A stretch of 64,000 nucleotides of DNA from NCBI GenBank assembly GCA_964291655.2, contig OZ219801.1:512001-576000 (forward strand), in the 5' to 3' direction. The stretch is from Chloroflexota bacterium. Lineage in GTDB: Bacteria > Chloroflexota > UBA11872 > VXOZ01. A program made the translations under genes and the position numbers. The first letter of the stretch is position 1. Each line of letters opens with the position of its first letter. The notes beneath the pieces are model-generated. The model did no database searches and was not told the origin of the DNA. It was given only the letters and a program-made list of their open reading frames with translations. Positions 6,724-53,868 of the stretch are shown here, piece after piece.

Positions 6724-7881
6724 TTGGTGAAGCCTTACACTAGTCGGACTCTACTTCTGACCGTTGGAATTCTGGTCTTCTTACTCGTAGCCATTGGCTG
6801 TCAGACCGCGCCGGGGTCGATGGATGGGACGTTGGAGATTCCCTCCGGGCGGGAGCCGAATGCGGCGGTGAGTGGGACGGTGACGTATCGAGAGCGGATT
6901 GCGCTGACGCCGGGGGCGAAGCTGGTGGTGGAGTTGCGGGACGTGTCTTTGCAGGACGCCGCGGCGCCGCTCATTGCGCGGCAGACGATTGAAAGCCCCG
7001 GTCAGGTGCCGATCGCGTTCAACGTGGAGTACAACCGCGACGATATCAACTCCCGCAACACATATGCAATACAAGCCAAAATCATCGAATCTGACGGCCG
7101 GCTCGCCTTCATCAACGATACCGCCTATGACGTCATCACTCGCGGCAATCCCACTACGGTCGACATGCTCCTGGTATTGGTGGAGCCGCCGCCCGATCAG
7201 GTAGAGGAAGGGCAGGACTGGCGCAGGTGGGTGGAGGCGCCGGCGCCGATACTTTGGGCCAACCTGATACCGAACGAAGCCGATCCCTTCCTGCGAATAG
7301 CCTATCACCAGTCAACCATCGAGGGCTGCGCCCGTCCCGGCAATGAGGGACTGAGCGTTGCGGGCACCGACATCATTGCCCGGGTTACGTTGATGCAGCC
7401 GCCGCCGACCTCGTGGGCCATTCCGTGCCACGAGCAGGTGGTGGAACTCGACACGGTGTTACCGGTTGATGTCGCTCTCGAACCGGAGCAGACCTATCGC
7501 GTCATAGTCAACGATCAAGTAACGACGACGTTTTCTCTGCCGAGGGTAGGCTTCCCCGCCTCGGAACTTCGAGAATCGCCGATTGAGCACACAGAGATCG
7601 AAGTGCTAGAGCGCACGCCGACAGAGTACCAATTGCGCGTCGTTTCCGGCATGCCCAGCGGCAGTTGCTCGCACTTCAACGGGTTCGAAATCTGGCGGGA
7701 CAACTCCAACGCGATTGACGTCCGCATCACCCATCACTACGTCGTGGAAGAAGAGGTCGTCTGCACAATGGACTACCCCATTGTCGAGACCATCGTGCCC
7801 TTAGGTTCCGAGTTTGAGCAAGGTGTGGAATACACCCTTACCGTAAACGGCGAGAACAGTCAGTCCTTCGTTGCGCGCTAG
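6724..7881 (+). CDS. YbaY/YscW-family lipoprotein with two C-terminal Cys-pair beta domains
   Basis: Lipobox VAIGC; VSGTVTYRERIALTPGAKLVVELRDVSLQDAAA..IA..GQVPIAF. Confidence 0.8.
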   Translation: MVKPYTSRTLLLTVGILVFLLVAIGCQTAPGSMDGTLEIPSGREPNAAVSGTVTYRERIALTPGAKLVVELRDVSLQDAAAPLIARQTIESPGQVPIAFNVEYNRDDINSRNTYAIQAKIIESDGRLAFINDTAYDVITRGNPTTVDMLLVLVEPPPDQVEEGQDWRRWVEAPAPILWANLIPNEADPFLRIAYHQSTIEGCARPGNEGLSVAGTDIIARVTLMQPPPTSWAIPCHEQVVELDTVLPVDVALEPEQTYRVIVNDQVTTTFSLPRVGFPASELRESPIEHTEIEVLERTPTEYQLRVVSGMPSGSCSHFNGFEIWRDNSNAIDVRITHHYVVEEEVVCTMDYPIVETIVPLGSEFEQGVEYTLTVNGENSQSFVAR

Positions 7882-8271: not shown

Positions 8272-8862
8272 ATGACTGATCTCTCCCAGCACCCGGAACT
8301 CTATGTGCGCCAGGAAATCGAGCACCTGGAAGTCTTTTCGGGCCTGGAGACCCAGAACCGCTACAGCGTGAGAACACCCGGTGGAGAACAACTCCTCTAT
8401 GCCTTCGAAGAGTCGGGACTGCTGGGGCGCAACGTCCTCAGCTCCCACCGACCTCTGACAATCCACGTAGTGGACCGGAACAATACGGAAGTCATCAATG
8501 CCAGCCGGAGCTTCTTCTGGTTCCTCTCCCACCTGCACGTCAGCGACGGCGCGGGCCGGCGCATCGGCTCGATGCAGCGGCGCTTCTCATTCCTCACGCG
8601 CAAATTCGACTTGATGGATGCAACCGGCAGCGTAGTCGCGGAAATGCGCGGGCCAATCTTCCGCCCCTTCACCTTCATGGTCTACCAGCAGGGACAGGAA
8701 ATCGGCCGCGTAACGAAGCAGTGGAGCGGCTTAGGCCGGGAGGCCTTCACCGACGCCGACACGTTCAAAGTGGAGGTGGACACCAGCCGCACCGACCAGG
8801 AATTCTCACTGCTCATGCTCGCCAGCGCGATCTCAATCGATTTAGATTTTTTCGAGAAGTAA
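8272..8862 (+). CDS. phospholipid scramblase / Tubby-C-like protein
   Basis: RQEIEHLEVFSGLETQNRYSV and GRVTKQWSGLGREAFTDADTF...IDLDFFE; GGAGG RBS. Confidence 0.85.
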   Translation: MTDLSQHPELYVRQEIEHLEVFSGLETQNRYSVRTPGGEQLLYAFEESGLLGRNVLSSHRPLTIHVVDRNNTEVINASRSFFWFLSHLHVSDGAGRRIGSMQRRFSFLTRKFDLMDATGSVVAEMRGPIFRPFTFMVYQQGQEIGRVTKQWSGLGREAFTDADTFKVEVDTSRTDQEFSLLMLASAISIDLDFFEK

Positions 8863-32626: not shown

Positions 32627-32888
32627 AAGTTGGCCGGCAGCACTGTCGTCTCAGCCGCGCGAGACCGCGAAACGACGTTTTAGCGGAGTCAGGAGCGATC
32701 TGCGCACTCTTACATATGTCCCCGCTTCACCGGCCCGTCAATTAGTGTTGAGTTTAAATACTAGAGCCGCGCCAGAACGACAGCAGCACTCGATCCCGCC
32801 ATCGAGCAACGCATCGCCCAATTTGCCCTATAGTTGAGGCAGTTGGCTGCATCGGTATCCGTCATTGGCAAAGGGAAAGGTTAATCGC

Positions 32889-34301
32889 ATGAAAGACCAA
32901 CGACCGAATATCATCCTCTATACCACCGACCAGCAACGGGGCGACCACCTCGGCATTGCCGGCCATCCGGTGATTGAGACTCCCAATGTGGACGCGTTCG
33001 TCGAACACGGGGCTTACTTTCCCAACGCGTATACGGAGATTCCCTCCACGACCGGCGCAAGGCGTATTATGCATGGGGGTCAGCGCAGCTACGATTGCGG
33101 CCTGATTGGCTACTCCGCGTCAGAGTGGCACGAGCCAAACACCCTGGCGGCGGTGCTGGCCGATGCCGGCTACCACTGCATCAACGTCGGTTGGCGCAAC
33201 ATGCACCCGCGCCGCAAACTCTACGGCTTCCACACGGTCATCCCTCACGAAATTCGCGAGGGAGAGGATGACTATTGGGACTGGCTCCGCCAAGAACTTG
33301 GCCCGTACGCCCACGAGCGCACGGTCGGATCGGATGCCAATGGTTGGCTGGCGCGTCCCTGGATATATGAAGAGCGCTATCACTGCACGAACTGGACCGT
33401 AGACGTGACGATTGAGCAAATCAGAAAGCGCGATCCTACGCGACCCGTCTTTGTCTGGTGCTCGCAACTCCGTCCTCACTCCCCATACGACCCACCGCAA
33501 TTCTTCTGGGATATGTATATCAACCGGCAACTGCCGGAGATTCCCGTTGGCGATTGGGCTGAGCGGTACAACGTGCCCCAGCCCGGCCTGCCTCGCCAAG
33601 CGTGGTACGGCCGGTTGACTGACGAACAGTTGCAGCGCATGCGGGCAGCGTACATGGGCTGCATCACCCACCTCGACTATCAGCTCGGCTACTTGCTGGA
33701 ACTCGTGCAAGGGGAGTTGGACCGCAATCTCATGATCGTATACACGGCGGACCACGGCGATATGATGGGCGACCACAATTTACTGCGCAAGTGCTACGCA
33801 TATGAAGGATCGGCCCGCATTCCGTTTGTCATCAAATATCCGAATAGCCTCGACGTGCCGTCCGGTACGTTCGAGCATCCGGTCGGGCTGCAAGACGTCA
33901 TGCCGACGATTCTCGAGGCAACCGGCACGCCTATCCCCGATTCCGTGACCGGCACGAGCGTTCTGAAAGCGGCGCGCGGCGAACCGTGGCGCGAATACGT
34001 TCACGGGGAGCATTCGCCAGTCTACAGCGAGGACAATGCTGTGCAGTACCTCACCGACGGTAAGGAGAAGTACCTCTGGTTCCCCGTGCGCGGTGAAGAA
34101 CAGTTCTTCGACCTTGCCAACGACCGTCAGGAACTTCACGACAGGGCGAATGATCCGGCCTATGCCGACCGGGTTACGCTGTGGCGCAACCGCCTCATAG
34201 ATTACTTAGGCGAACGCGGCGACGGGTTCTCCGATGGAGAAAAACTGCTAGTCCGTCCTGAAGGCTACGGCCCGGAGGCAGATCAGCCTGCGGCGGTCTG
34301 A
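32889..34301 (+). CDS. sulfatase-family hydrolase with atypical catalytic motif (TTGAR)
   Basis: RPNIILYTTDQQR, TPNVD, PSTTGARR, PHSPYDPP, TADHGDMMGDH..RK, YEGSARIP, YVHGEH, FDLANDRQE. Confidence 0.88.
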   Translation: MKDQRPNIILYTTDQQRGDHLGIAGHPVIETPNVDAFVEHGAYFPNAYTEIPSTTGARRIMHGGQRSYDCGLIGYSASEWHEPNTLAAVLADAGYHCINVGWRNMHPRRKLYGFHTVIPHEIREGEDDYWDWLRQELGPYAHERTVGSDANGWLARPWIYEERYHCTNWTVDVTIEQIRKRDPTRPVFVWCSQLRPHSPYDPPQFFWDMYINRQLPEIPVGDWAERYNVPQPGLPRQAWYGRLTDEQLQRMRAAYMGCITHLDYQLGYLLELVQGELDRNLMIVYTADHGDMMGDHNLLRKCYAYEGSARIPFVIKYPNSLDVPSGTFEHPVGLQDVMPTILEATGTPIPDSVTGTSVLKAARGEPWREYVHGEHSPVYSEDNAVQYLTDGKEKYLWFPVRGEEQFFDLANDRQELHDRANDPAYADRVTLWRNRLIDYLGERGDGFSDGEKLLVRPEGYGPEADQPAAV

Positions 34302-43649: not shown

Positions 43650-45485
43650 ATGAATCAGCCGATCTTGCTCCTGCATGCCGACCATGCGCTCACCACGCCG
43701 GTAAGTGCAGAGATCCTCCGTTGCGAGGGTTTTCCCTGGCTAGAGGCGAAATCTGCGGCATCTTTCGTAGATGCGCCGCCGGATGTCGAACTCATTGTTG
43801 TCGCAGGCAGCGGCATGGGTAACGAGACCGCGGAGCGCCTCGCTGCCGCAGTAGCAGGTGGCACATCTCTCATTGCCCTGGCTCCCGATCCCGCCCTGCT
43901 GACCGCCCTTGGCGTCACGGCAGGAGAGCAAGTAACGGATGCGTGGCTCACGGTACGGCAACTCCCCCAATGGGAACACGGGAGCCTGCCTCTGCTCTGC
44001 CCGGATGCCATTTCACGGACTTTGAGCGGCGGCGAGACCGTTGCTGAGTTGCGGGATGCCGAAGGCAGCCTGCTCGGCGCGGGCATCGTGGAAGTAAGGC
44101 TAGGTGAAGGCAAGGCGTGGCTCTACGGCTATGACCTCTGCCAGGCCGTCGTCACCTTTCGGCACGGTGACGGAGACCTGCACGAGCGACCGCTGCAAGA
44201 CATGGGACCGCTAAAGGGTCCGCGCCATCTCTACAGCTTCTTCGAGCTTTCCGAGAAAACTACCCGCGATATCCCCGTGGCGGACGTCCATCAAGACATC
44301 CTGCGCACTCTAGTGGCGGAAGCACTGTCCAACACGCCATTGCCTCGACTCTGGTACTTCCCCGAAGCGGCTCCGGCCTTGTGGTTCATCAAGGGCGACG
44401 GCTGCGGCGAAAACGGCGCGCCCGTGTTAGTAGACATTGTGGAGTCGTATGGCGCGTTGCTCACCTTCTACCGGGCGCCCTTCAGCCGCTATGAGGGCGA
44501 CCTGATGAAAGAATGGCACGCGCGCGGGCATGCCGTTTCCATAGAAGTGGACCTTACGAGCATCACGCAATACACCGTGCAGGAAAACGGCACGCAGGCG
44601 CGTTACGGCCGCACGCCGGAAGACCTGAATGAAAACTACCTGCCCGCGCTCCGCGCGAATCTGCAGGAATCATGGGATGTTTTCCGCCGGGAGACCGGTC
44701 TCGACGTGGAAACAATTTGCAGCCACGGCTGTCAGTGGACCGGCCACCCGCTGTTGCAGATAATGCTGGACTTTGGCTGGTATACGCCCACACACTTTGC
44801 CTCCCACGATCCCCGCATGCGGCGGGACGAAAACTACGGCCCCTACATGATCGGCACCGGTTTGTGCATGCCGTACTTCCAGCACGGCGTGGGCATTACC
44901 GATATGTGGCACATGCCCGCGCAATGGGACGAAAGCCAGACCATTGGGCGGCACGAGGACCTGTTGGCCGGCCCCATGGCAGCAACACCCGATCGGGTCG
45001 AAGGCATGGTGGGTCTCACCTCAGAAGAGTATGGCGTGGAGCTCGCGCGCTTTGCCGAATCCGCGGCCACGCGCTGGCACGTGATGCAGATCGCAAACTT
45101 CCATCCCGTCTACGCCGCGGGGCCCCAGGACCACGTAAGAGCGTCGCGCCATGCGCTGGAGTTGGGCATGGAAGGCGCGATTGCGGCCGGCTGCCGCTTT
45201 GAAAACCAAGAGAACTACTCCAGCTTTTCGCGGGCGCGTGCAGGCGTACGCATGACTGAGTCATATTCCCAGGGCGATACCCACTTCATCACGCTCGAAT
45301 CCGGCGCGGACATTTCAGGACTGTCACTCATGCTGCCTGACAACGTTGCCTCTGTGCAGGACAAGAGCACCGGCGCGGCCTTGCCCATCCAGCAGGCAAC
45401 TCTGGAGAGTCGTCGCCAACGTGCAGTGAACATCAGTCTATCGGCGGCAACACCGAAGACTTTGTGCCTCCAACCGAGGTCTTAG
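43650..45485 (+). CDS. hypothetical protein with a polysaccharide-deacetylase-like core
   Basis: Long ORF in an operon; PRLWYFP, IKGDG, WHARGH.VS, SHG.QW, NFHP resemble NodB-like barrels. Confidence 0.55.
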   Translation: MNQPILLLHADHALTTPVSAEILRCEGFPWLEAKSAASFVDAPPDVELIVVAGSGMGNETAERLAAAVAGGTSLIALAPDPALLTALGVTAGEQVTDAWLTVRQLPQWEHGSLPLLCPDAISRTLSGGETVAELRDAEGSLLGAGIVEVRLGEGKAWLYGYDLCQAVVTFRHGDGDLHERPLQDMGPLKGPRHLYSFFELSEKTTRDIPVADVHQDILRTLVAEALSNTPLPRLWYFPEAAPALWFIKGDGCGENGAPVLVDIVESYGALLTFYRAPFSRYEGDLMKEWHARGHAVSIEVDLTSITQYTVQENGTQARYGRTPEDLNENYLPALRANLQESWDVFRRETGLDVETICSHGCQWTGHPLLQIMLDFGWYTPTHFASHDPRMRRDENYGPYMIGTGLCMPYFQHGVGITDMWHMPAQWDESQTIGRHEDLLAGPMAATPDRVEGMVGLTSEEYGVELARFAESAATRWHVMQIANFHPVYAAGPQDHVRASRHALELGMEGAIAAGCRFENQENYSSFSRARAGVRMTESYSQGDTHFITLESGADISGLSLMLPDNVASVQDKSTGAALPIQQATLESRRQRAVNISLSAATPKTLCLQPRS

Positions 45486-45819
45486 CGATCTGCGCCCAAA
45501 GAAGCGGCTATACCGGCAAAGAAACTCGCCGTGCATGCCGTCCTCTCTCCTCTTGAACTGCATGGAACGAATTCTTGTCCTTCAGGTCCGCTAAGACTGA
45601 GCCGATGTGCAGTCGACGTGTAAGAAGCGTTCGGATTAAACGGCGGTTCCAGCTCAACCCAGTGCCAATTCTTGCTGCATGTTACCGCTGGGAACGCAGA
45701 GCCAACCTGCCAAACTGCGACTCTCACACCTGGCAACTGTCTGAGGCTTGAACGCGACGTGGCACCTTGCCAGTTGGGAAACATGCGTCTGTGCCCATTT
45801 GCGTTTGCAAAATGGCGGT

Positions 45820-48735
45820 TCACGTCATCTGCCGCTGCACCAGGTCGCGGAATGGCCCTTCGGTCTGGTAGAGCGCAATGAAGCTGCCTTCCTGGACGAC
45901 GCGTCCCTGGTGGAGTACATAAATGCGCTGGGCTTTGCGGATGGTGGAGAGCCGGTGGGCGATTACGATGCGGGTAGCGGCAAGGCTCTCGATGCCCTCC
46001 ATAACCTGGGCCTGGCTATTCGCGTCGAGCCAACTGGTGGCTTCATCGAGGAACACGATGCGTGGGTTGCGTACGAGCGCCGCCGCGATCCTGATGCGTT
46101 GCACCTGCCCGCCGGAGAATGTCGAAGAACTGTCGCCCACGGCGGTAAACATCTGCATTGGCATTTCGGCGATGTCACAGTCCACGGCGGCGAGCTTGGC
46201 TGCCCGCCAGGCATCATCTAACGTCAAGTCATCGCCAATGCCGATGATGTTGTCGAGCAAATTACCGGGCTTGAGGGAGCCGTCCTGCGTCACGACGCCG
46301 ATCTGGCGCCCAACCGACCTGCGATCGAGATTCGTTAGGTCGCGGCCGTCGAAGTAGATGCCTCCGGCAGAAGGTTCTTCAAGACCCAAAGCAAGCCGCA
46401 ACAAGGTGCTCTTGCCCGCGCCGGACTCGCCGACGATCGCGATGAATTCGCCGGGACGGGCGCGAATTGAAACATCATCGATGATTTTAGGCCCATCCTT
46501 AGTGTACTGAAAACTCACGTGGTCGAAGCGAATGTCACCACTGAGTACCGCCGGGGCGGCCGGCGCCGGGCGGCTATCCGGGACCGCGGCGAGAATCGGC
46601 TTAATCTGTTCGTATACCGGCACCACTGCGGCAATGGCTTCAAGCGAGTAACCCAGCCCGATGATTGACGCATAGAGCGTAATGGAAACCGCATAGACGA
46701 CGAGGAAGCTCCCTAAGGCCAGTTGGTCGGGCCCCCTCCAAAGTGCGGCCCCGAAGAGGGCTGCGCCTGTGAAGGCCGGCATAGCGGCGCTGAACGCAAC
46801 CAGGTGTTCGTTCAGCTTGCTGATTTGCAACTGGGCGAGTTGCTGCTCTCGGTAGCCGCGCGCCCACGAGGCGAAAGCCGACGATTCCGCGCCTGCAGAA
46901 CGCAATTTGCTGATGCCATTGATGAACTGGAAGAGCTCCCCGGCGAGATGCCGCGATGCGGCGTAGAAGCGGCGCTGGGGCTGAATCTGCAACAAGCCTA
47001 TAGCACAGATTGCGGTTAAGGAGACGAGCCCGATCCCGAGACTCAGCCAGGCCAGGGCGGCGTCGTAGAGAAAAAGCAGGGCAAGCATCGGCAGCAGAAA
47101 CAAGAACGAAGTAAGGGCATGAGCAACAACCCCCGAGACCTGATCCCGCAGCACTTGAACCGCCGACATCCGCACCGCAAGCTCTCCAGCAGTAGAATCT
47201 CTGAAGAAGCTTGTCGGCAGTCCAATCAAGCGGTCCCAAAGTGCTGCACCCAGGCGTGCCGTGGCCCGGCCTTCCAGACGCATCATTGCGGTACCGCGCA
47301 GGACTTGAAGTAGAGTGCCCACAATGGCAAGAGCAGTCAATGCGATGACTACCTGAGCTAGCATGCTGTCTACGGCTGCCGGAAGAATCCAATCCGCCAG
47401 TAACCCAAACGCTAGCGCGGGAGCAAGCACCAGAAGGCTGGCGAGAATGCCCGCAATCGCAAACTGCGCAAGATCACTGGCAATGCCCTTTGTGGCAAGG
47501 CTAATGATGTCCTTTGAGTCCGCCGGTCTGTCATGCGGCAGAGGCCGGTAGAATAGCCATGCGTCCTCTTGAATAGCGTTTGCCCGCCTTGCGTTTAGGC
47601 GGTCCGACCGCCCCGCAACCGGGTCTACCTCGCGGTAGCGGCCGTGCATGCGAGGCAGCAGGGCTACCGGGCGGCCGTCTTCTTGCCGGTATCCCAGCAT
47701 GGCGCCGCTGTCTCCTACCCACCAGCGGTCTTCGACAGATAGATGCACCTTGCGGCTGCGCACACCTGATGTTTGCAGTATTTCTTGCAGGGTTAGTTCT
47801 TCATCGACCGTGACCCGTCGTCGCGCCGGAAGGCGAAATTCAATTCCTTCGTGCTTGCCGATCACTTCAAGCACCGCCAACAGACCGGAATCACCAGTGG
47901 CGGTCTTCGGTGCGGAGGATCCGAGCACGCTGAAGAGATTGTGTCTGGCGCGTTCCTCGTCCCGACGACGGTAGGTGGAACGGGCCGTCTGTTCGTTTGC
48001 CTCGTCAGCTACCAGGAGAAGGCGATTGATTTGCTCCGCGCCTAGGGCGAGCTTGTGGAATTCCGCGAGGGAAGGCAACAGTGCGCCTTCATCGAACATC
48101 GCCCGTGAGGTCAAACCGGTAATTCGATTCGTGCTCTGCAATGTTATCCACGTCTCTGCAGTGAGCGGGACGAAGCCGGTGCCTTCCGGATCTCGCTCTT
48201 CGGTGCCTAAGAATGCTGCATCGACGCTGCCGACGTCGACCCACACTACCCCGCCCGGCCGGGCGGATAGAACGCTGCCGACCGCGGCGTCCAGCGAGTC
48301 TTCCGGACTCTTGGGGTCAAACAGCACATCGGGACGGGGACGCGGCTCAATGACTTTTGCCACGGCGGCTGCGAACTCCGTGAGCCAAGCATCGACCTGC
48401 CCGGACATTTGCTCTGCAATATCATATTTCAGCAATTCACTCAGAACGACGCGACGCAGCCGGCAATCCGGCATGCCCTTGGCGACTGGAACCAATGCTC
48501 CACTCTCTCCAACTCCAAACACAAGACGGCCGTCACCGGCGCGCAGCAGGTGTTTAGCGTGAGATGACTGCTCTTGTCCTTGGTACTCGACAAGAAATAC
48601 ATCGAGCACGCCGCTCTCGACGAACCAGGCGATCTTGGGATCATCCAAGCGGATGGGGCGATTACCGGCGACGGACACTGACTCACCGAGCTCAATTGCG
48701 AGCTCGCCGAGCCGTTGGACTCGTCTCGATGTCAT
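45820..48735 (-). CDS. NHLP-type bacteriocin ABC transporter, permease/ATPase with N-terminal cNMP-like and degenerate C39-like regions
   Basis: LDDPKIAWFVESG.LDVF, W...DSGAMLG, FYRPLP, GESGAGKST, FSGGQVQR, LDEATS.LD, IAHRLSTI; matches the TIGR03797-type architecture. Confidence 0.9.
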   Translation of the reverse strand: MTSRRVQRLGELAIELGESVSVAGNRPIRLDDPKIAWFVESGVLDVFLVEYQGQEQSSHAKHLLRAGDGRLVFGVGESGALVPVAKGMPDCRLRRVVLSELLKYDIAEQMSGQVDAWLTEFAAAVAKVIEPRPRPDVLFDPKSPEDSLDAAVGSVLSARPGGVVWVDVGSVDAAFLGTEERDPEGTGFVPLTAETWITLQSTNRITGLTSRAMFDEGALLPSLAEFHKLALGAEQINRLLLVADEANEQTARSTYRRRDEERARHNLFSVLGSSAPKTATGDSGLLAVLEVIGKHEGIEFRLPARRRVTVDEELTLQEILQTSGVRSRKVHLSVEDRWWVGDSGAMLGYRQEDGRPVALLPRMHGRYREVDPVAGRSDRLNARRANAIQEDAWLFYRPLPHDRPADSKDIISLATKGIASDLAQFAIAGILASLLVLAPALAFGLLADWILPAAVDSMLAQVVIALTALAIVGTLLQVLRGTAMMRLEGRATARLGAALWDRLIGLPTSFFRDSTAGELAVRMSAVQVLRDQVSGVVAHALTSFLFLLPMLALLFLYDAALAWLSLGIGLVSLTAICAIGLLQIQPQRRFYAASRHLAGELFQFINGISKLRSAGAESSAFASWARGYREQQLAQLQISKLNEHLVAFSAAMPAFTGAALFGAALWRGPDQLALGSFLVVYAVSITLYASIIGLGYSLEAIAAVVPVYEQIKPILAAVPDSRPAPAAPAVLSGDIRFDHVSFQYTKDGPKIIDDVSIRARPGEFIAIVGESGAGKSTLLRLALGLEEPSAGGIYFDGRDLTNLDRRSVGRQIGVVTQDGSLKPGNLLDNIIGIGDDLTLDDAWRAAKLAAVDCDIAEMPMQMFTAVGDSSSTFSGGQVQRIRIAAALVRNPRIVFLDEATSWLDANSQAQVMEGIESLAATRIVIAHRLSTIRKAQRIYVLHQGRVVQEGSFIALYQTEGPFRDLVQRQMT

Positions 48736-48766
48736 GAGTTGCTCTTCTGATGCAAGGCATACACGG

Positions 48767-50979
48767 CTATTGCGCCTGAATTAGCTTGTAGTACAAGCCT
48801 GTCTTGGCGGCGATGAGTTCCTCGTGGGTACCCCGCTGAATCTCCTGACCGCGATCGAGCACAATTATCTGATCGCAATCGCGGATAGTGCTCAGACGGT
48901 GGGCAACGATCAAGCTGGTACATCCACGCCGCCGCAGATTGTGATCGATGCGCATCTCACTCACTGCATCGAGCGTACTGGTAGCTTCATCCAGAAACAG
49001 CACTGAAGGGTTGTCCACTAGGGCACGAGCGATCTCCATGCGTTGGCGTTGACCGCCGCTGAAATTCGTGCCCCCTTCTTCCACATTAGAGTCATAGCCG
49101 GACTGGCGGCTCATAATCTCGCTGTGAATTAAAGCGTCCTGAGCAGCGGCGACCACCTGTTCGTCAGGCGCAGTTGGGTTCCACATCGTAAGATTGTCAC
49201 GCACTGACGCAGCAAACAGGAATGTCTGCTGATCGACGATTGAGACCGAACGAGTGAGTATCTCGCGGGATATTTGGTTGCGCGGCACCCCATCAAAGCG
49301 TATTTCACCCGACCACGGTGTATATTCGCCGCTAACCAGCTTGAGCAGCGTCGATTTGCCGGAACCGGTGGGGCCGACCAATGCTACCCGCTGGCCGGGT
49401 GCAATAGTTAGGTTAATGTTCTCTATGAGCGGCGGACGATTGGGACGATAGCCAAATGTGACATTGCGCAACTCGATGCTCCCTGCTAAACGCAAGCGCC
49501 CTCCCAGGGTGGAGACTCTGCCGCGCTCAGAATTGGTTGACACTGCAAGCGCAGGGTCTTCAGGCGTGTCTAGAACGTCGTTGATGCGCCGCAGATCTGC
49601 CTCCAAAATCTGAAAGGCGTCCGTAAACTGAACGAACCGGCTTATGGGCTGAAGGAAACTGCCTGAAACCACATAGAATCCCATTAGCATGCCAATTGTC
49701 ATTTCGCCTGACATGACTTGCCAACCGCCGACGCCCAAGACTGTTACGCCGCTCAGGACTATGAAGAACCTTGGGAGCGATGCAATTATTGAGCCGAGTT
49801 CTGCGAATTCTGCCGAGCAACGAGCTCCCGGGCTTGATATCCCGTCCAGCGAGCGAAGAAATCATCCTCCGAAGCTGTTGCGCGCAGCGTCTCTATGTCT
49901 CGTACAACCGACGATCCGGTACCAAAGAGTAATGCCTGTTCGCGCCGCAACTGGCGATTCTCGTCGGTGCGCAGACGGCTGAGTATGCGCATGACAACAA
50001 GGTTCGCAATTCCCAAGCCAGCAATGAGCGCGGCCAGCAACGGATTGAAGATAACCATCAACACCAAGAACAGGCCACTCATGACGAGCTCAATCATGAT
50101 GCCGACGAACTGCCGCGACGAGCCGCTGGCAACATCATTGATCAACTGAACGCGGGATGTTAGGTCTCCGGCATAGCGGTGCGCAAAAAAACCTACGGGT
50201 AGACGGAAGAGACGCGACAGCATGCGCTCCGCATGAACTACCGATAATCGAATAGAGAGTCTGCGCAACGAGTGTTGCTGGAGCCAAGTGAGGAGGTATA
50301 CAAGCACACCGGTCGCAACGGCGGCGGCTACAAGGTACACACCCCAATTTCTCTCCGATCCACGCAGGACATAGTCGACAAATATGCTCAAGAGGATGGG
50401 GAGAGAGAGACCGGGCAACGCAAGCAGGATCCCGCACGCGGCGACAAACGCGAGCGGAGACCTAACGTCACGTAACCAGTGCCAAAGCTCGCGCACGACG
50501 CCGGGCGGAGACCCCCCCGTGCGAAAGTTTGGTCCCGGCTTCGCCGTGAGCACCACGCCGGTGAAAGATCGGTCGAGTGTCTCTTCACTCACGGTGCGAC
50601 GGCCATTGGCCGGGTCATTGAGGTAGAAACGTCCTCTGGCTATCCTTTCAAGAACCAAGAAGTGATTGAAATCCCAGAAGAGAATTGCAGGCAACGCTAT
50701 GTCTTGCAATTCGCTGACCTGTTTGCGCCAGCCTGAGACTTCTAAATCGAACTTCCTGGCGGCTCTCACGATGTCCGCGGCGCTCGTGCCGTCTCGGCTC
50801 ACTCCACATGCGTCGCGCAGTTCTTCGATGGGTACCCAGCGGCCGAAGTGAGCAAGCAAAATGCCCAAACAGGCAGCACCGCACTCGGATGTCTCAAGCT
50901 GTGGGAACAGTGGCGTGTGTACGCGTTTTCTCGCAGTTGTCTTCGCTTGGCTTGCAGGCATCTTCCCCAGCCGCCTCAA
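48767..50979 (-). CDS. NHLP-type C39 peptidase/ABC transporter, split by a 1-nt frameshift near 49808
   Basis: Q.ETSECGAACL, FNHFLV, NDPA catalytic triad; GPTGSGKST, FSGGQRQR, DEATS. Restoring one base at CAG AA- TTC gives a continuous RQxFAELGSIIASLP...GGWQVM. Confidence 0.88.
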
Positions 50980-51869
50980 TTGGTACCGAGCGAGATTAGG
51001 AGGCGTGCCGGTGAAACCTCACGCAGGATTATCCGCATCTCGCACGGATATCCATCCGCCATGGGAGAGGAAATCCTCTCGTTCAGGGTCAAGCTAACCA
51101 TGTGGCCGCGTGCCAGGGCGGGAAGTCCGAGAGCTGCGAGCCAATGGGGAGGTGTGACCGCTTGCGCCGAAACGTAGCTCACCTCAGCTTCCAACGCATC
51201 CGCACCTTCCTGGTATTGGGCCAAAGCCAGGACCTGCGCTTCCATGCCGACCGCAAGACGCCTCGCATTCTCCGGCAACACCATTGCGATCGCCTCAAGC
51301 TCATTCCCGGCATCAACTCGGACACTTGCCACTGTGGCGCCAGCCGCTACCGCCTGACCGAGTGACAAGCTGACGGCCGCAATGACACCGGCGAAGGGTG
51401 TTGCAAGGAACTGACCGGCCGCCTCGAGTGCTTCCAGCTCGATCAACTCCGCACGGGCCGCATCGAGGGCATCGGGAGGCTTTTCGTCTGCACTCTCCAG
51501 AATCTCAACCCGGGAGCGGGCAATTGAGATCTCGCGCCCGAGCTCGGGAATTCGGAGCCGGGCAATTGGCTGCCCTGCTTCCACTTTGTCGCCAACGCCT
51601 ACGAGGAGTTCGACGACAATGCCGGAAGATTCTGCGTTCACGACAAAGCGGTCGCCGGCTTGCGCGAGCATGCATCGTGCCGAGACACTCTCTTCAATGC
51701 TGCCGAAGAGGCCCCAAGCTACAAACCCCAGCATGGCAATACCCAGGCAGACCAACAAGATCCATTCGTGGGGCGCCGTAACACGCAATAGGCCGTTGAG
51801 GGGCTCTGTTTTCCCTCTGCGCGCAAAGGCTTCCTCGCGAAAGAGACGCTGCTTGTTCGTCAACGTCAC
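50976..51869 (-). CDS. NHLP bacteriocin secretion accessory protein (HlyD/MFP family)
   Basis: LFREEAF...PL..LLRVTAP..W, WGLFGSI, SSG.V..L.V..GD.V..GQ.IA, PARLLI; TIGR03794-like. Confidence 0.88.
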   Translation of the reverse strand: MTLTNKQRLFREEAFARRGKTEPLNGLLRVTAPHEWILLVCLGIAMLGFVAWGLFGSIEESVSARCMLAQAGDRFVVNAESSGIVVELLVGVGDKVEAGQPIARLRIPELGREISIARSRVEILESADEKPPDALDAARAELIELEALEAAGQFLATPFAGVIAAVSLSLGQAVAAGATVASVRVDAGNELEAIAMVLPENARRLAVGMEAQVLALAQYQEGADALEAEVSYVSAQAVTPPHWLAALGLPALARGHMVSLTLNERISSPMADGYPCEMRIILREVSPARLLISLGTN

Positions 51870-52322
51870 TGCTCCAAGCTTTCCAGATAGGGCTATTCCC
51901 GGTTGAAGGTTATTCTATCGCAATGCCAGAGCTAATTGAAATGACGAGAACACGGTACCTGTGTATCCCCGGCGCGCCTTGCAGGCTCGAGCCCAACCTC
52001 AGATTCTCAGGTGAGGAAGAGGCCAACGTTTAGCCCGCTGCAATTGCCTGAGAAGATGCAAAAGCAGCGGGCTTTAGAACGAAACGGGTAATGGTCGCTG
52101 AACATGCAATAAGCCGGTTTGCCCTGATACAGCTGGTGCCAAGTAGCGCCCCACGCGCTGTTGTGAATTAGCCGCTGCGACTACTCTTGACCAGCACCTC
52201 TATGCTGGAAGCGTCACGGTCTTCGCCCCACGGATGCCCTGCCCCCAACTGGCCGGCGGCACGAAGCCGAAGCACTGGCATTCCCACTTAAGACGAACCA
52301 AGCAATGGCCCGACACCTGAAC

Positions 52323-52366
52323 AAAAAACAGGTACGATGGACCATTCACAGAGCCCATCGTACCTG
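52323..52366 (-). terminator. rho-independent terminator immediately after the precursor gene
   Basis: Minus strand: CAGGTACGATGG-loop-CCATCGTACCTG followed by TTTTTT. Confidence 0.8.
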
Positions 52367-52389
52367 ACATGCACTAGCTAAAGAAGAGT

Positions 52390-52584
52390 CTACGAGTTTG
52401 GATCGTTCCACCAACCGTTACCGGACTTGTCGTCGGTATCCTGCGGACCCTGGTCATCGCCGGCCCCGACTCCGCCTACGGCATCGTCCATCTCGTCCTC
52501 GGTCAATTCGCCACTGGAAGGTTCCACTTGTTCCGCTTCGGCAGCCGTGGTTTCCTCAGTGGAAGCAGACTTCTCTTTACTCAT
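52390..52584 (-). CDS. double-glycine leader peptide precursor (64 aa)
   Basis: ELTEDEMDDAVGG| with L(-12), E(-8), M(-7), A(-4), GG; GGAGG RBS 9 nt upstream; own terminator; directly upstream of the C39 exporter cassette. Confidence 0.85.
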   Translation of the reverse strand: MSKEKSASTEETTAAEAEQVEPSSGELTEDEMDDAVGGVGAGDDQGPQDTDDKSGNGWWNDPNS

Positions 52585-53133
52585 TTTGGGTTCCTCCGCA
52601 CAAACGCTTTACAAAGTCCTCAGCACCCTAACCGACTGTTACTGATGTCCCATGTTGCGCCAAAGCGCCTCAGGGCAAATTCTCGCCAATGCAACACCAC
52701 ATCACCACAAAGTCTCACAAGCATCCAAATCAAAGGCGGCTGCTCAAGAGAATCGTTGGTAGAGTAACCTCCTTTGGCATCTCTAAATGTCTCCCGGTGT
52801 TGACGTTAGGGACGATCATCTTCGATCGCAACCGTATGTTATAGCACACTTAGCTACTCGTCAAGCCTGTTACACAGTCTACCCGTGATTGTCATGTACC
52901 TCTGTACTCGTCTAGGAGGTGGTAAAGCACCTGGCTTTTTGGCAATTGTCCTGTAAAAAGAGAGTTGGGTGCGATGGCTTTGGGATGAAGCAGTAACTCT
53001 ACGAGGGAGACTAGTTGGAAAACTATGAATGCGCGCATTGCTCTATACACTAGCTTCGCTCAAGCTGACGGCCACCTTGAGCGTGTGAACTACACCCGTG
53101 CTCTGTTGACATCTTGCTGCTGATCTCGCAGAC

Positions 53134-53868
53134 CTACGTGAGCTCAGGCTTCTGCAACACATAGATGATAAAATTCGGCACGCGGAATTCATCGGCGAAC
53201 CCGGGATTCGCGGCAAGCTGTTCGTCCGAAGGGGTTGGCTCCAGCAGGGACTGTAGCAAGAATCCCGCCTCCAAGAAGGCTGAGATGTAGCTGGAGAGCG
53301 TCCGGTGCATGTTGATGAACGGCGCGCCCCACCATTCGAATTCCCGAGGCCCTTCGGCGGTATAGTTGTCAATTGCATAAAAGAGCTTCCGGTCACCCTG
53401 TCTAATCCAGCCGTCGGGCTGCGCCATACGCATCGGGTGTACGTTACAAACAATGAAGCGGCCTCCAGGCCTCAAGACTCGAAACGCGGCCCGGACCGAC
53501 CGTGCATAGTCTTGCACGTCGACAAGCACAATGTATGAGACGGCGAGATCGAAACTCTCATCGTCTATACCGGCAAGGTCTTCGGCGTTTTCGATCGAAT
53601 AGGTTTCAGTGAGTCCCGCCGCCGCGCGCGCTTGCGCGATGAGGGGCTCGGTGAGGTCAATTCCGGTGACATTCGCGCCAAGTGCGGCCAGGACTCGGCA
53701 AAACCGCCCTTCGCCACAGCCGATGTCCAGCACGCGACGACTGGCGACATCTCCCAGCGCCTCAAGCATCCATGTGTCGAGCATGCCGGTGCGGACCGAC
53801 TGGTCCTGTTGCACCCAATCTTGCGCGTGCTTGGTCCACTGCGTACGCAGTTGCTGCTCTAGGTTCAT
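53134..53868 (-). CDS. class I SAM-dependent methyltransferase
   Basis: VLDIGCGEGRF, TGIDL, FDLAVS, RVLRPGGRF, HP, HRTLSSYI. Confidence 0.9.
   Translation of the reverse strand: MNLEQQLRTQWTKHAQDWVQQDQSVRTGMLDTWMLEALGDVASRRVLDIGCGEGRFCRVLAALGANVTGIDLTEPLIAQARAAAGLTETYSIENAEDLAGIDDESFDLAVSYIVLVDVQDYARSVRAAFRVLRPGGRFIVCNVHPMRMAQPDGWIRQGDRKLFYAIDNYTAEGPREFEWWGAPFINMHRTLSSYISAFLEAGFLLQSLLEPTPSDEQLAANPGFADEFRVPNFIIYVLQKPELT

Follow-up and report, generated by a model that had tools for sequence, protein, structure and literature searches.

A conserved cassette for the probable export of an acidic, cysteine-free double-glycine peptide in a Chloroflexota genus

The window analysed here, 64,000 nucleotides of contig OZ219801.1 from the assembly GCA_964291655.2 of a Chloroflexota bacterium (positions 512,001 to 576,000), carries a four-gene cassette in which a small precursor peptide with a double-glycine leader lies beside three genes of a peptide exporter. 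The cassette is on the minus strand, a point that an earlier, sequence-only reading of this DNA had left unstated. Read 5' to 3' on that strand, a promoter-like site is followed by an untranslated leader of about 250 nt, the precursor gene, a terminator-like hairpin, a spacer of 520 nt, a gene for a short HlyD-like accessory protein (the adaptor) and two genes for ATP-binding cassette (ABC) transporters, ABC1 and ABC2 (Table 1). That an HlyD-like, a C39-peptidase ABC and a second ABC gene follow the precursor had been seen correctly, all three lying downstream on the same strand; the split in the frame of the C39-ABC gene, to which we return below, had been overlooked.

Table 1. Features of the cassette and its control regions (window coordinates)
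Feature	Position	Strand	Basis
Presence/absence module: precursor, control regions and three transport genes	45430..53153		blastn, window versus the corresponding sites in G010 and G011
Promoter-like site of precursor (TTGACG, 17 nt, TAACAT)	52836..52864	-	scan; 10/10 aligned genus loci share TTGAC and, in the second hexamer, TA..AT
Conserved 5' untranslated leader	52585..52835	-	genus alignments A4 and A5
Precursor open reading frame (ORF), 64 aa	52390-52584	-	translation identical to the peptide of the sequence-only reading; stop codon 52390-52392
Predicted leader peptide, 38 aa, end ...GELTEDEMDDAVGG	52471..52584	-	translation and genus alignment
Predicted core peptide, 26 aa, acidic, end GWWNDPNS	52393..52470	-	translation and alignments
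Intrinsic terminator-like hairpin, 15 pairs, then T-run	52319..52366	-	sequence scan
Promoter-like element (..TTGCGATAGAAT), about 45 nt 5' of adaptor gene	51912..51930	-	CG.TAGAAT invariant in 10/10 (A3); not called by a simple promoter scan
Adaptor: short protein of HlyD-like membrane-fusion/accessory type, 297 aa if read from GTG	50976..51869	-	Pfam HlyD_3 and Biotin_lipoyl_2; TIGR03794
ABC1: C39-peptidase/permease/ATPase, frame-split in assembly	48767..50961	-	TIGR03796; Pfam Peptidase_C39, E 1e-34
ABC2: second permease/ATPase, 971 aa	45820..48735	-	TIGR03797

Most of what had been said of the precursor stands. Its strong ribosome-binding site is a GGAGG placed 8 nt before the ATG, and it is indeed followed by a terminator-like hairpin of its own. 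Recounting the core gave the same composition, with six Asp, one Lys, no Cys and one Trp-Trp pair. With a charge of -5.3, a grand average of hydropathy (GRAVY) of -1.76 and no hydrophobic or amphipathic stretch, it is, as had been stated, unlike cationic bacteriocins; in 12 relatives the charge lies between -2 and -6 (10 of these values were computed without the last residue), and Cys occurs only sporadically. The window peptide matches no Pfam or NCBIfam family at E<=0.01. The leader was described as short and devoid of an NHLP or Nif11 domain, and none of 13 peptides of the genus matched the corresponding models (TIGR03793 and TIGR03798) even at E<=10, while a Nitrospirales precursor used as positive control reached 58.8 bits with the NHLP model, against a cut-off of 50.9.

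In a search of 60 related genomes, the precursor was found in 14 of the 16 genomes of the same genus, all of them metagenome-assembled genomes (MAGs) of Chloroflexota, at E-values of 2e-11 to 2e-34, and its recurrence is therefore more than chance. Outside the genus nothing convincing appeared among these genomes, the best match (E 0.004) lying within a 257-aa frame that holds a stop. The 13 genus peptides have a mean column identity of 71%. Invariant among them are G25, E26, T28, E29, D30, E31, A35, V36, G37 and G38 of the leader, and Q45, P47, W58, W59 and P62 of the core. The Asp-rich middle is the variable part of the core, which speaks against the fixed metal site that the sequence-only reading had allowed for; an EF-hand-like calcium site in D-T-D-D-K-S-G was ruled out, as this stretch varies between orthologs. 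Over the whole ORF, the ratio of non-synonymous to synonymous substitution rates (dN/dS) was 0.12-0.34 in eight of ten pairs, and one pair was saturated. Since the ORF recurs in 14 of the 16 genomes of the genus with an identical start (ATG and a GGAGG-like site are kept in the loci read), the same terminator and a low dN/dS, and always beside the same cassette, we regard it as a real gene, apparently under purifying selection.

The peptide also appears to be tied to the exporter. The adaptor was found in the same 14 genomes of the genus and in none of 44 genomes from other genera of the class, and precursor, adaptor, ABC1 and ABC2 stand in identical order in 13 of 14 genus loci, the fourteenth reaching a contig edge within ABC1, after its first half. 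Conservation of the Trp-Trp core next to the cassette, which the sequence-only reading had proposed to look for, is thus borne out; the paralogs that it also proposed to look for were not found in the genome. A six-frame scan with a relaxed leader motif returned two matches, namely the precursor ORF and a 37-aa ORF that looks spurious, and neither a Nif11 leader nor an NHLP precursor was detected in the same genome, so far as these searches go leaving the precursor as the only candidate substrate of the cassette. Two sub-cut-off matches to TIGR03793 were rejected as precursors: they fall in a 150-aa nitrile-hydratase-alpha-like protein (G000:C2:38291-38743) that keeps the CTPCSC metal motif.

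A profile built from the genus peptides retrieved 34 proteins of 53-94 aa among 5.8 billion sequences, and 6 among 1.84 billion representatives; all 34 carry no annotation beyond 'hypothetical protein'. A pattern search of JGI metagenome contigs gave 596 matches, none of which was confirmed as a relative. Two of the retrieved proteins have a similar core behind another leader: P0034 (..AGRIAGG then IGTVDEQ..GSGWWNDPND) and P0036 (..EKVVGG then IGTNEDQ..GSGWWSNPNR), the latter bearing no name. Because all 23 sequences compared, these two among them, keep W58, W59 and P62, and the same core recurs behind different leaders, the core appears to be the selected part of the precursor.

The exporter had been assigned to the TIGR03794/03796/03797 type, and this holds for both transporters and less well for the adaptor. 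ABC2 scores above the TIGR03797 cut-off (729.1 against 709.4 bits, model positions 3-686). The adaptor remains below that of TIGR03794 (97.3 against 156.2 bits), its best stretch covering model positions 6-114 of 421. A homologous adaptor from Nitrospirales is likewise below (91.3 bits), and the length is the same across the 14 genus genomes and similarly short in the Nitrospirales cassette, so that we read the adaptor as a short variant of the TIGR03794 type. Its conserved start is probably the TTG at 51863, kept in 10 of 10 aligned genus sequences (A3), the GTG being kept in seven.

ABC1 lies in two frames in the window, 49786-50979 (TIGR03796 positions 2-375, 420.5 bits) and 48767-49738 (positions 396-710, 461.5 bits). 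Its true start is the Met of MPASQ.. at 50961, the longer frame having a stop at codon 3 in three relatives. Alignment to four relatives shows the window to be one A short in an AAA run (49807/49808). Contigs from all four public runs examined (X1, X2, X5 and X7; region 48700-52700) carry the missing base, as a T to be put in behind 49807. X1 and X2 show no other differing letter over 4001 bases and may be the source samples; X5 and X7 are 95-99% alike. In each of the 13 relatives with both halves, the coordinates place these in one frame, a result checked by translation for one of them (L011). This intact ortholog (L011:11626-13821, genome G008, 731 aa) scores 911.7 bits with TIGR03796, above the cut-off of 853.3, and its halves are 97% and 98% identical to those of the window. 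Because four of four runs carry the base and the 13 relatives are in frame, the split is a 1-nt deletion due to an assembly error, and not decay. As the error sits in a near-complete, two-contig assembly, pseudogene calls in such MAGs need checking against reads.

The C39 domain of ABC1 keeps Cys27 (..SECGAACL..) and His100 (..FNHF..), which we take to be the catalytic residues, in 12 of 12 sequences (A6). Prediction of a complex between this domain (A6) and the precursor (A1) gave 0.29, 0.31 and 0.31, against a mark of 0.32, with controls at 0.00-0.02; these values carry no weight in either direction. ABC2 has an N-terminal extension of about 283 aa (window 47881-48735 corresponds to residues 1-285) that has no Pfam match. 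In an AlphaFold model, residues 11-120 form a beta-barrel plus helix with a predicted local distance difference test (pLDDT) of 76-92, residues 127-207 model poorly, and a long helix spans 219-270. Foldseek matched the model to CRP, Vfr, CLP and CprK at E-values near 2e-5, with low TM values since only part of it aligns, and the ESM Atlas gave weak leads only (0.83-0.85), some of them in clusters that bind cyclic nucleotide monophosphates. The first 125 residues or so thus have a predicted fold like the ligand-binding barrel of the CRP/FNR type, which hints at a ligand-gated export.

The control regions of the precursor are conserved as well. A short hairpin lies directly 3' of the promoter-like site, within the untranslated leader, and its pair at columns 20/31 is changed on both sides in two sequences. 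About 180 nt 5' of the ATG there is a perfect Shine-Dalgarno-like AAGGAGGTTA (AAGGAGGT), with no start codon or ORF after the box, and no Rfam family was found at E<=1 over 51700-53200. The untranslated region may serve in mRNA stabilisation or as an operator. Behind the gene, the aligned genus loci share the position of the hairpin, the more distant loci having other stem sequences (alignment A3, judged by eye). The TAGAAT element 5' of the adaptor, a putative second promoter, is the only conserved part of the 520-nt spacer.

The limits of the cassette as an evolutionary unit are given by the two genus genomes without precursor and adaptor, G010 and G011. In both, the alignment to the window jumps from 45429 to 53154, and both flanking genes, a 611-aa ORF and a class I methyltransferase, are kept. 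Since precursor and cassette are missing together at these empty sites, the 7.7-kb unit of precursor and three transport genes is gained or lost as one module. In G010 (L051), the flanking genes are 155 bp apart, and this gap holds two direct copies of a GC-rich palindromic element of about 30 nt; in G011, 1287 bp of other sequence separate the same two genes. The module comprises four genes only, and no further conserved ORF was found in it, nor any that would fit an immunity protein. A second gene in the spacer or after ABC2 was ruled out, the 56-, 43- and 113-aa ORFs of these regions being conserved no further than a 95%-identical relative. In seven of the 14 genus loci (L015-L017, L019, L021, L023 and L024, compared with the window), the whole cassette stands the other way round with respect to the methyltransferase. 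In one of these, L024, part of ABC2 (its 3' end, residues 912-971) occurs a second time upstream of the precursor, probably as a scar left behind by the inversion.

How such a module could work is suggested by the leader. According to PMC6363468, C39 peptidases recognise Leu(-12)-X3-Glu(-8)-Leu(-7)-...-GG, within the last 13 leader residues; GA or GS may stand in for GG, and the residue expected at -4 is hydrophobic. L/M27(-12), E31(-8), M/L32(-7), G37 and G38 are conserved accordingly in 13 of 13 genus peptides, double glycine included; the departure from the consensus is small, with Ala at -4 and Val at -3. In the mechanism that we propose, the 64-aa precursor would have a transcript of its own, running from its promoter to its terminator, and its last 13 leader residues (L/M-T-E-D-E-M/L-x-x-A-V-G-G) would dock in the C39 domain of ABC1, which would cut after Gly37-Gly38. 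ABC1 and ABC2, presumably as a heterodimer, would then export the 26-residue core with the help of the short HlyD-like protein, a process that may be gated by the CRP-like domain on ABC2. The exported product would most likely be a linear, strongly acidic and hydrophilic peptide with a conserved working end at its C-terminus, G-W-W-x-D/N-P-N/D. It would carry no dedicated modification, or a minor one at most, and most likely serve in extracellular signalling or interaction, rather than as a membrane-active bacteriocin.

We therefore favour, with moderate confidence, a self-contained secretion module for an exported, probably unmodified acidic 26-mer with an extracellular role. The observation from which the analysis started is confirmed in part, and its interpretation as an uncharacterised exported peptide class is partly supported: the peptide is conserved, linked to an exporter and without a described family, but 'class' is too strong a word for what appears to be a new family within the known double-glycine kind. 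The refutation that the sequence-only reading had proposed for itself fails: the ORF is conserved under apparent purifying selection, and the homologous loci of the genus carry the acidic peptide and not Cys-rich NHLP precursors.

Several points weigh against the proposal of an exported, unmodified peptide. Expression, cleavage and export of the precursor are predictions from sequence. The closest pair (window and L011) differs by five non-synonymous and no synonymous changes, small numbers in which no purifying selection is visible. The module is missing from two genus genomes only, and related genomes are not independent. The leader has Ala at -4, whereas solved complexes show Val or Ile there. 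The remaining points concern modification. A maturase of a new or unrecognised type may be encoded in the genome, and the search for LanC had no match while its control was also silent, so that a lanthionine enzyme may be present. Two P450 genes elsewhere in the genome are candidates as modifiers of the core, and the invariant Q45, P47, W58, W59 and P62 would equally suit recognition by a modifying enzyme. Finally, a homologous short-adaptor cassette from a Nitrospirales MAG (G061; L055, 9593-16007) codes for a 296-aa adaptor, a 740-aa C39-ABC protein and a 972-aa ABC2, its adaptor being 34% and its ABC1 53% identical to those of the window. Immediately behind it comes the true NHLP-leader precursor used above as positive control, which ends in ..AAG then RCCC, and no maturase was found in the 18 kb read. 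The short-adaptor cassette thus appears to serve classical precursors of peptides that are made on the ribosome and modified after translation (RiPPs) elsewhere, and the acidic peptide in this Chloroflexota genus. Exporters and maturases can therefore be unlinked in such genomes, and the absence of a neighbouring maturase is weak evidence for an unmodified product.

The P450 genes, the invariant core residues and the Nitrospirales cassette also speak for the most serious rival, a RiPP modified before export by an enzyme encoded elsewhere. Candidate changes are chemistry on Trp-Trp by a P450 or other oxidase, methylation by the class I methyltransferase nearby, and conversion of the conserved Gln to pyroglutamate following a second cut. 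The definition of TIGR03794/6/7 cassettes by their link to NHLP and Nif11 RiPP precursors, as given in PMC2887384, agrees with this rival, as does the position of the methyltransferase, which adjoins the module in 14 of 14 loci, on either side. Nevertheless, we consider it the less likely reading. The sequence-only reading had reported no known RiPP enzyme in the window, and a Pfam scan of the 46 larger ORFs of the window found no such family. Genome-wide searches, a step that it had suggested, found no YcaO, SPASM or Trp halogenase gene in a genome that is 97.55% complete, with positive controls that worked. The unit of gain and loss contains precursor and transport genes only, and the core has no Cys and is not rich in Ser or Thr. 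The methyltransferase (77% identical) is kept in both module-free genomes, and it stays by the same neighbour while the cassette inverts; its adjacency therefore looks positional, and a role as dedicated maturase was judged unlikely. A neighbouring UbiA-family protein was ruled out as Trp prenyltransferase, being a heme O synthase (390 bits against a cut-off of 246). Because no maturase was found, yet the silent LanC control, the P450 genes and the Nitrospirales cassette leave modification open, 'unmodified or nearly so' ranks above 'modified in trans', but not by much.

Two other explanations fare worse. Known bacteriocins are mostly cationic or hydrophobic, and those of class II are defined by a core that is cationic or amphiphilic and by an immunity gene linked to it; neither of these two features was found here. 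An unmodified bacteriocin or microcin directed against competing bacteria in the host would fit the patchy occurrence of the module in the genus, as is common for bacteriocin loci, and class II loci classically pair a double-glycine leader with an exporter of the C39 ABC kind (PMC2887384 and PMC6363468). Considering, however, the acidic, hydrophilic core of the peptide and its relatives, its lack of any hydrophobic or amphipathic stretch, the absence of a conserved small immunity ORF from the module and a C-terminal motif that is constant and not diversified, we hold this to be improbable. Decay of a former NHLP-type RiPP cluster, of which the locus would be a remnant with a non-functional small ORF, could be argued from the split ABC1, from an adaptor of 297 aa against a 421-position model and below its cut-off, and from the lack of a maturase. 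This is contradicted already by the run contigs and the relatives, from which the split is missing, and by the dN/dS well below 1; moreover, the short adaptor has the same length throughout the genus and in the Nitrospirales cassette, and precursor, promoter and terminator are conserved. We give it hardly any credence.

The symbionts of sponges and corals are uncultured, and a known role has been assigned to very few of the molecules that they secrete. The genus appears to be linked to sponges. Part of the locus occurs in 22 sequencing runs, none of them listed as RNA, of which four are labelled sponge metagenome; X7 is one of these four, with a copy 95-99% identical. The core is not confined to the Chloroflexota genus. 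The leader of P0036 resembles those of another family of GG peptides, with a ..YAPDG.ILP.. core, from Nitrospirales genomes. Such a peptide, of 50 aa (..LEKIAGG then TGPSVSPYYAPDGTILPQN), is encoded in L038 (9807-10069, in the Nitrospirales genome G061, about 60 kb from its own cassette) and also in L059, and YAPDG-core peptides occur in four other Nitrospirales genomes (L056, L057, L061 and L062). In L038 and L059, a leaderless WW-core-like piece lies just downstream, about 60 nt past the 50-aa peptide and after an in-frame TAA, the same in both genomes. The YAPDG-type peptides, a second family of short GG peptides without Cys, have no match among the NCBIfam models. It is tempting to speculate that the sponge holobiont shares the acidic core as an extracellular 'word', an identical G-W-W-x-D/N-P-N core being issued by unrelated symbiont lineages (the Chloroflexota genus, P0036 with its Nitrospirales-like leader, P0034 with a third leader, and the leaderless relic of the two Nitrospirales genomes) and acting on the animal host or as a cross-phylum signal, its release gated by a small ligand at the CRP-like domain of ABC2. 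We regard this idea as distinctly unlikely.

The remainder of the window holds a DDE transposase at its start (3-1448), an Ion_trans/PKD-type channel (2065-2871), a protein with a YscW-like lipoprotein domain (6724-7881), a scramblase-family protein (8272-8862; PF03803, E 2e-45), from a family known mainly from eukaryotes, and a sulfatase (32865-34301).

The question arises as to which known systems this module resembles. Compared with the export cassettes of NHLP and Nif11 RiPPs (TIGR03794/TIGR03796/TIGR03797; Haft et al. 2010, PMC2887384), it shares the three exporter genes and their order, with ABC2 and the intact ABC1 ortholog above the cut-offs, and an acidic cleavage-proximal leader ending in GG. 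It differs by a precursor with a 38-aa leader and neither of the two domains, by a core that is not rich in Cys, Ser or Thr, by a genome in which no cyclodehydratase or radical SAM/SPASM gene was found (the control of the LanC search being silent), by its short, sub-cut-off adaptor and by the CRP-like N-terminal domain of ABC2. An exporter of the NHLP/Nif11 type would here be used for a short-leader, Cys-free, acidic peptide, and such peptides would escape genome mining that relies on maturases or on Cys-rich cores.

The unmodified double-glycine peptides of Gram-positive bacteria, that is, class II bacteriocins and ComC/ComAB pheromones (reviewed in PMC7595303 and PMC6363468), share a leader that is short and shows L(-12), E(-8), L(-7) and GG, a precursor beside a C39-ABC transporter and an accessory protein, the absence of modification enzymes and a small linear product. 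In contrast with the ComA/ComB pair, there are two ABC genes here, in an NHLP-type cassette; the core is strongly acidic and hydrophilic, and the host belongs to a Chloroflexota MAG lineage. Immunity, histidine kinase and response regulator genes are absent from the module, and no linked sensor kinase or response regulator, as in pheromone systems of the ComC/ComDE type, was seen among the Pfam-scanned neighbours, a receptor elsewhere in the genome not having been searched for. With the srp proteusins of sponge microbiomes (bioRxiv 10.1101/2023.06.09.544420 and PMC9426513), the module has in common small precursors, sponge-linked bacteria of several phyla, a conserved Trp near the C-terminus and a GG-type exporter. 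The srp precursors are described there with an NHLP leader, an LCCCW core, YcaO and a Trp brominase; an NHLP leader, CCC-W core, YcaO and halogenase were not found here.

A full-text literature search, supplementary tables excepted, returned no description of this peptide. Judged by these comparisons, the precursor is neither a member of the NHLP/Nif11 families nor an srp proteusin nor a typical bacteriocin. The system would work like double-glycine secretion by peptidase-containing ABC transporters (PCATs), with an exporter that is by score of the TIGR03796/03797 type and has a variant adaptor, and its peptide would be a new family within this known kind, an unusual use of a known exporter. 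The module is compact, genus-wide and apparently intact, and its product is predictable to the residue, a 26-mer with a monoisotopic mass of 2731.10 Da if unmodified, and hence directly testable.

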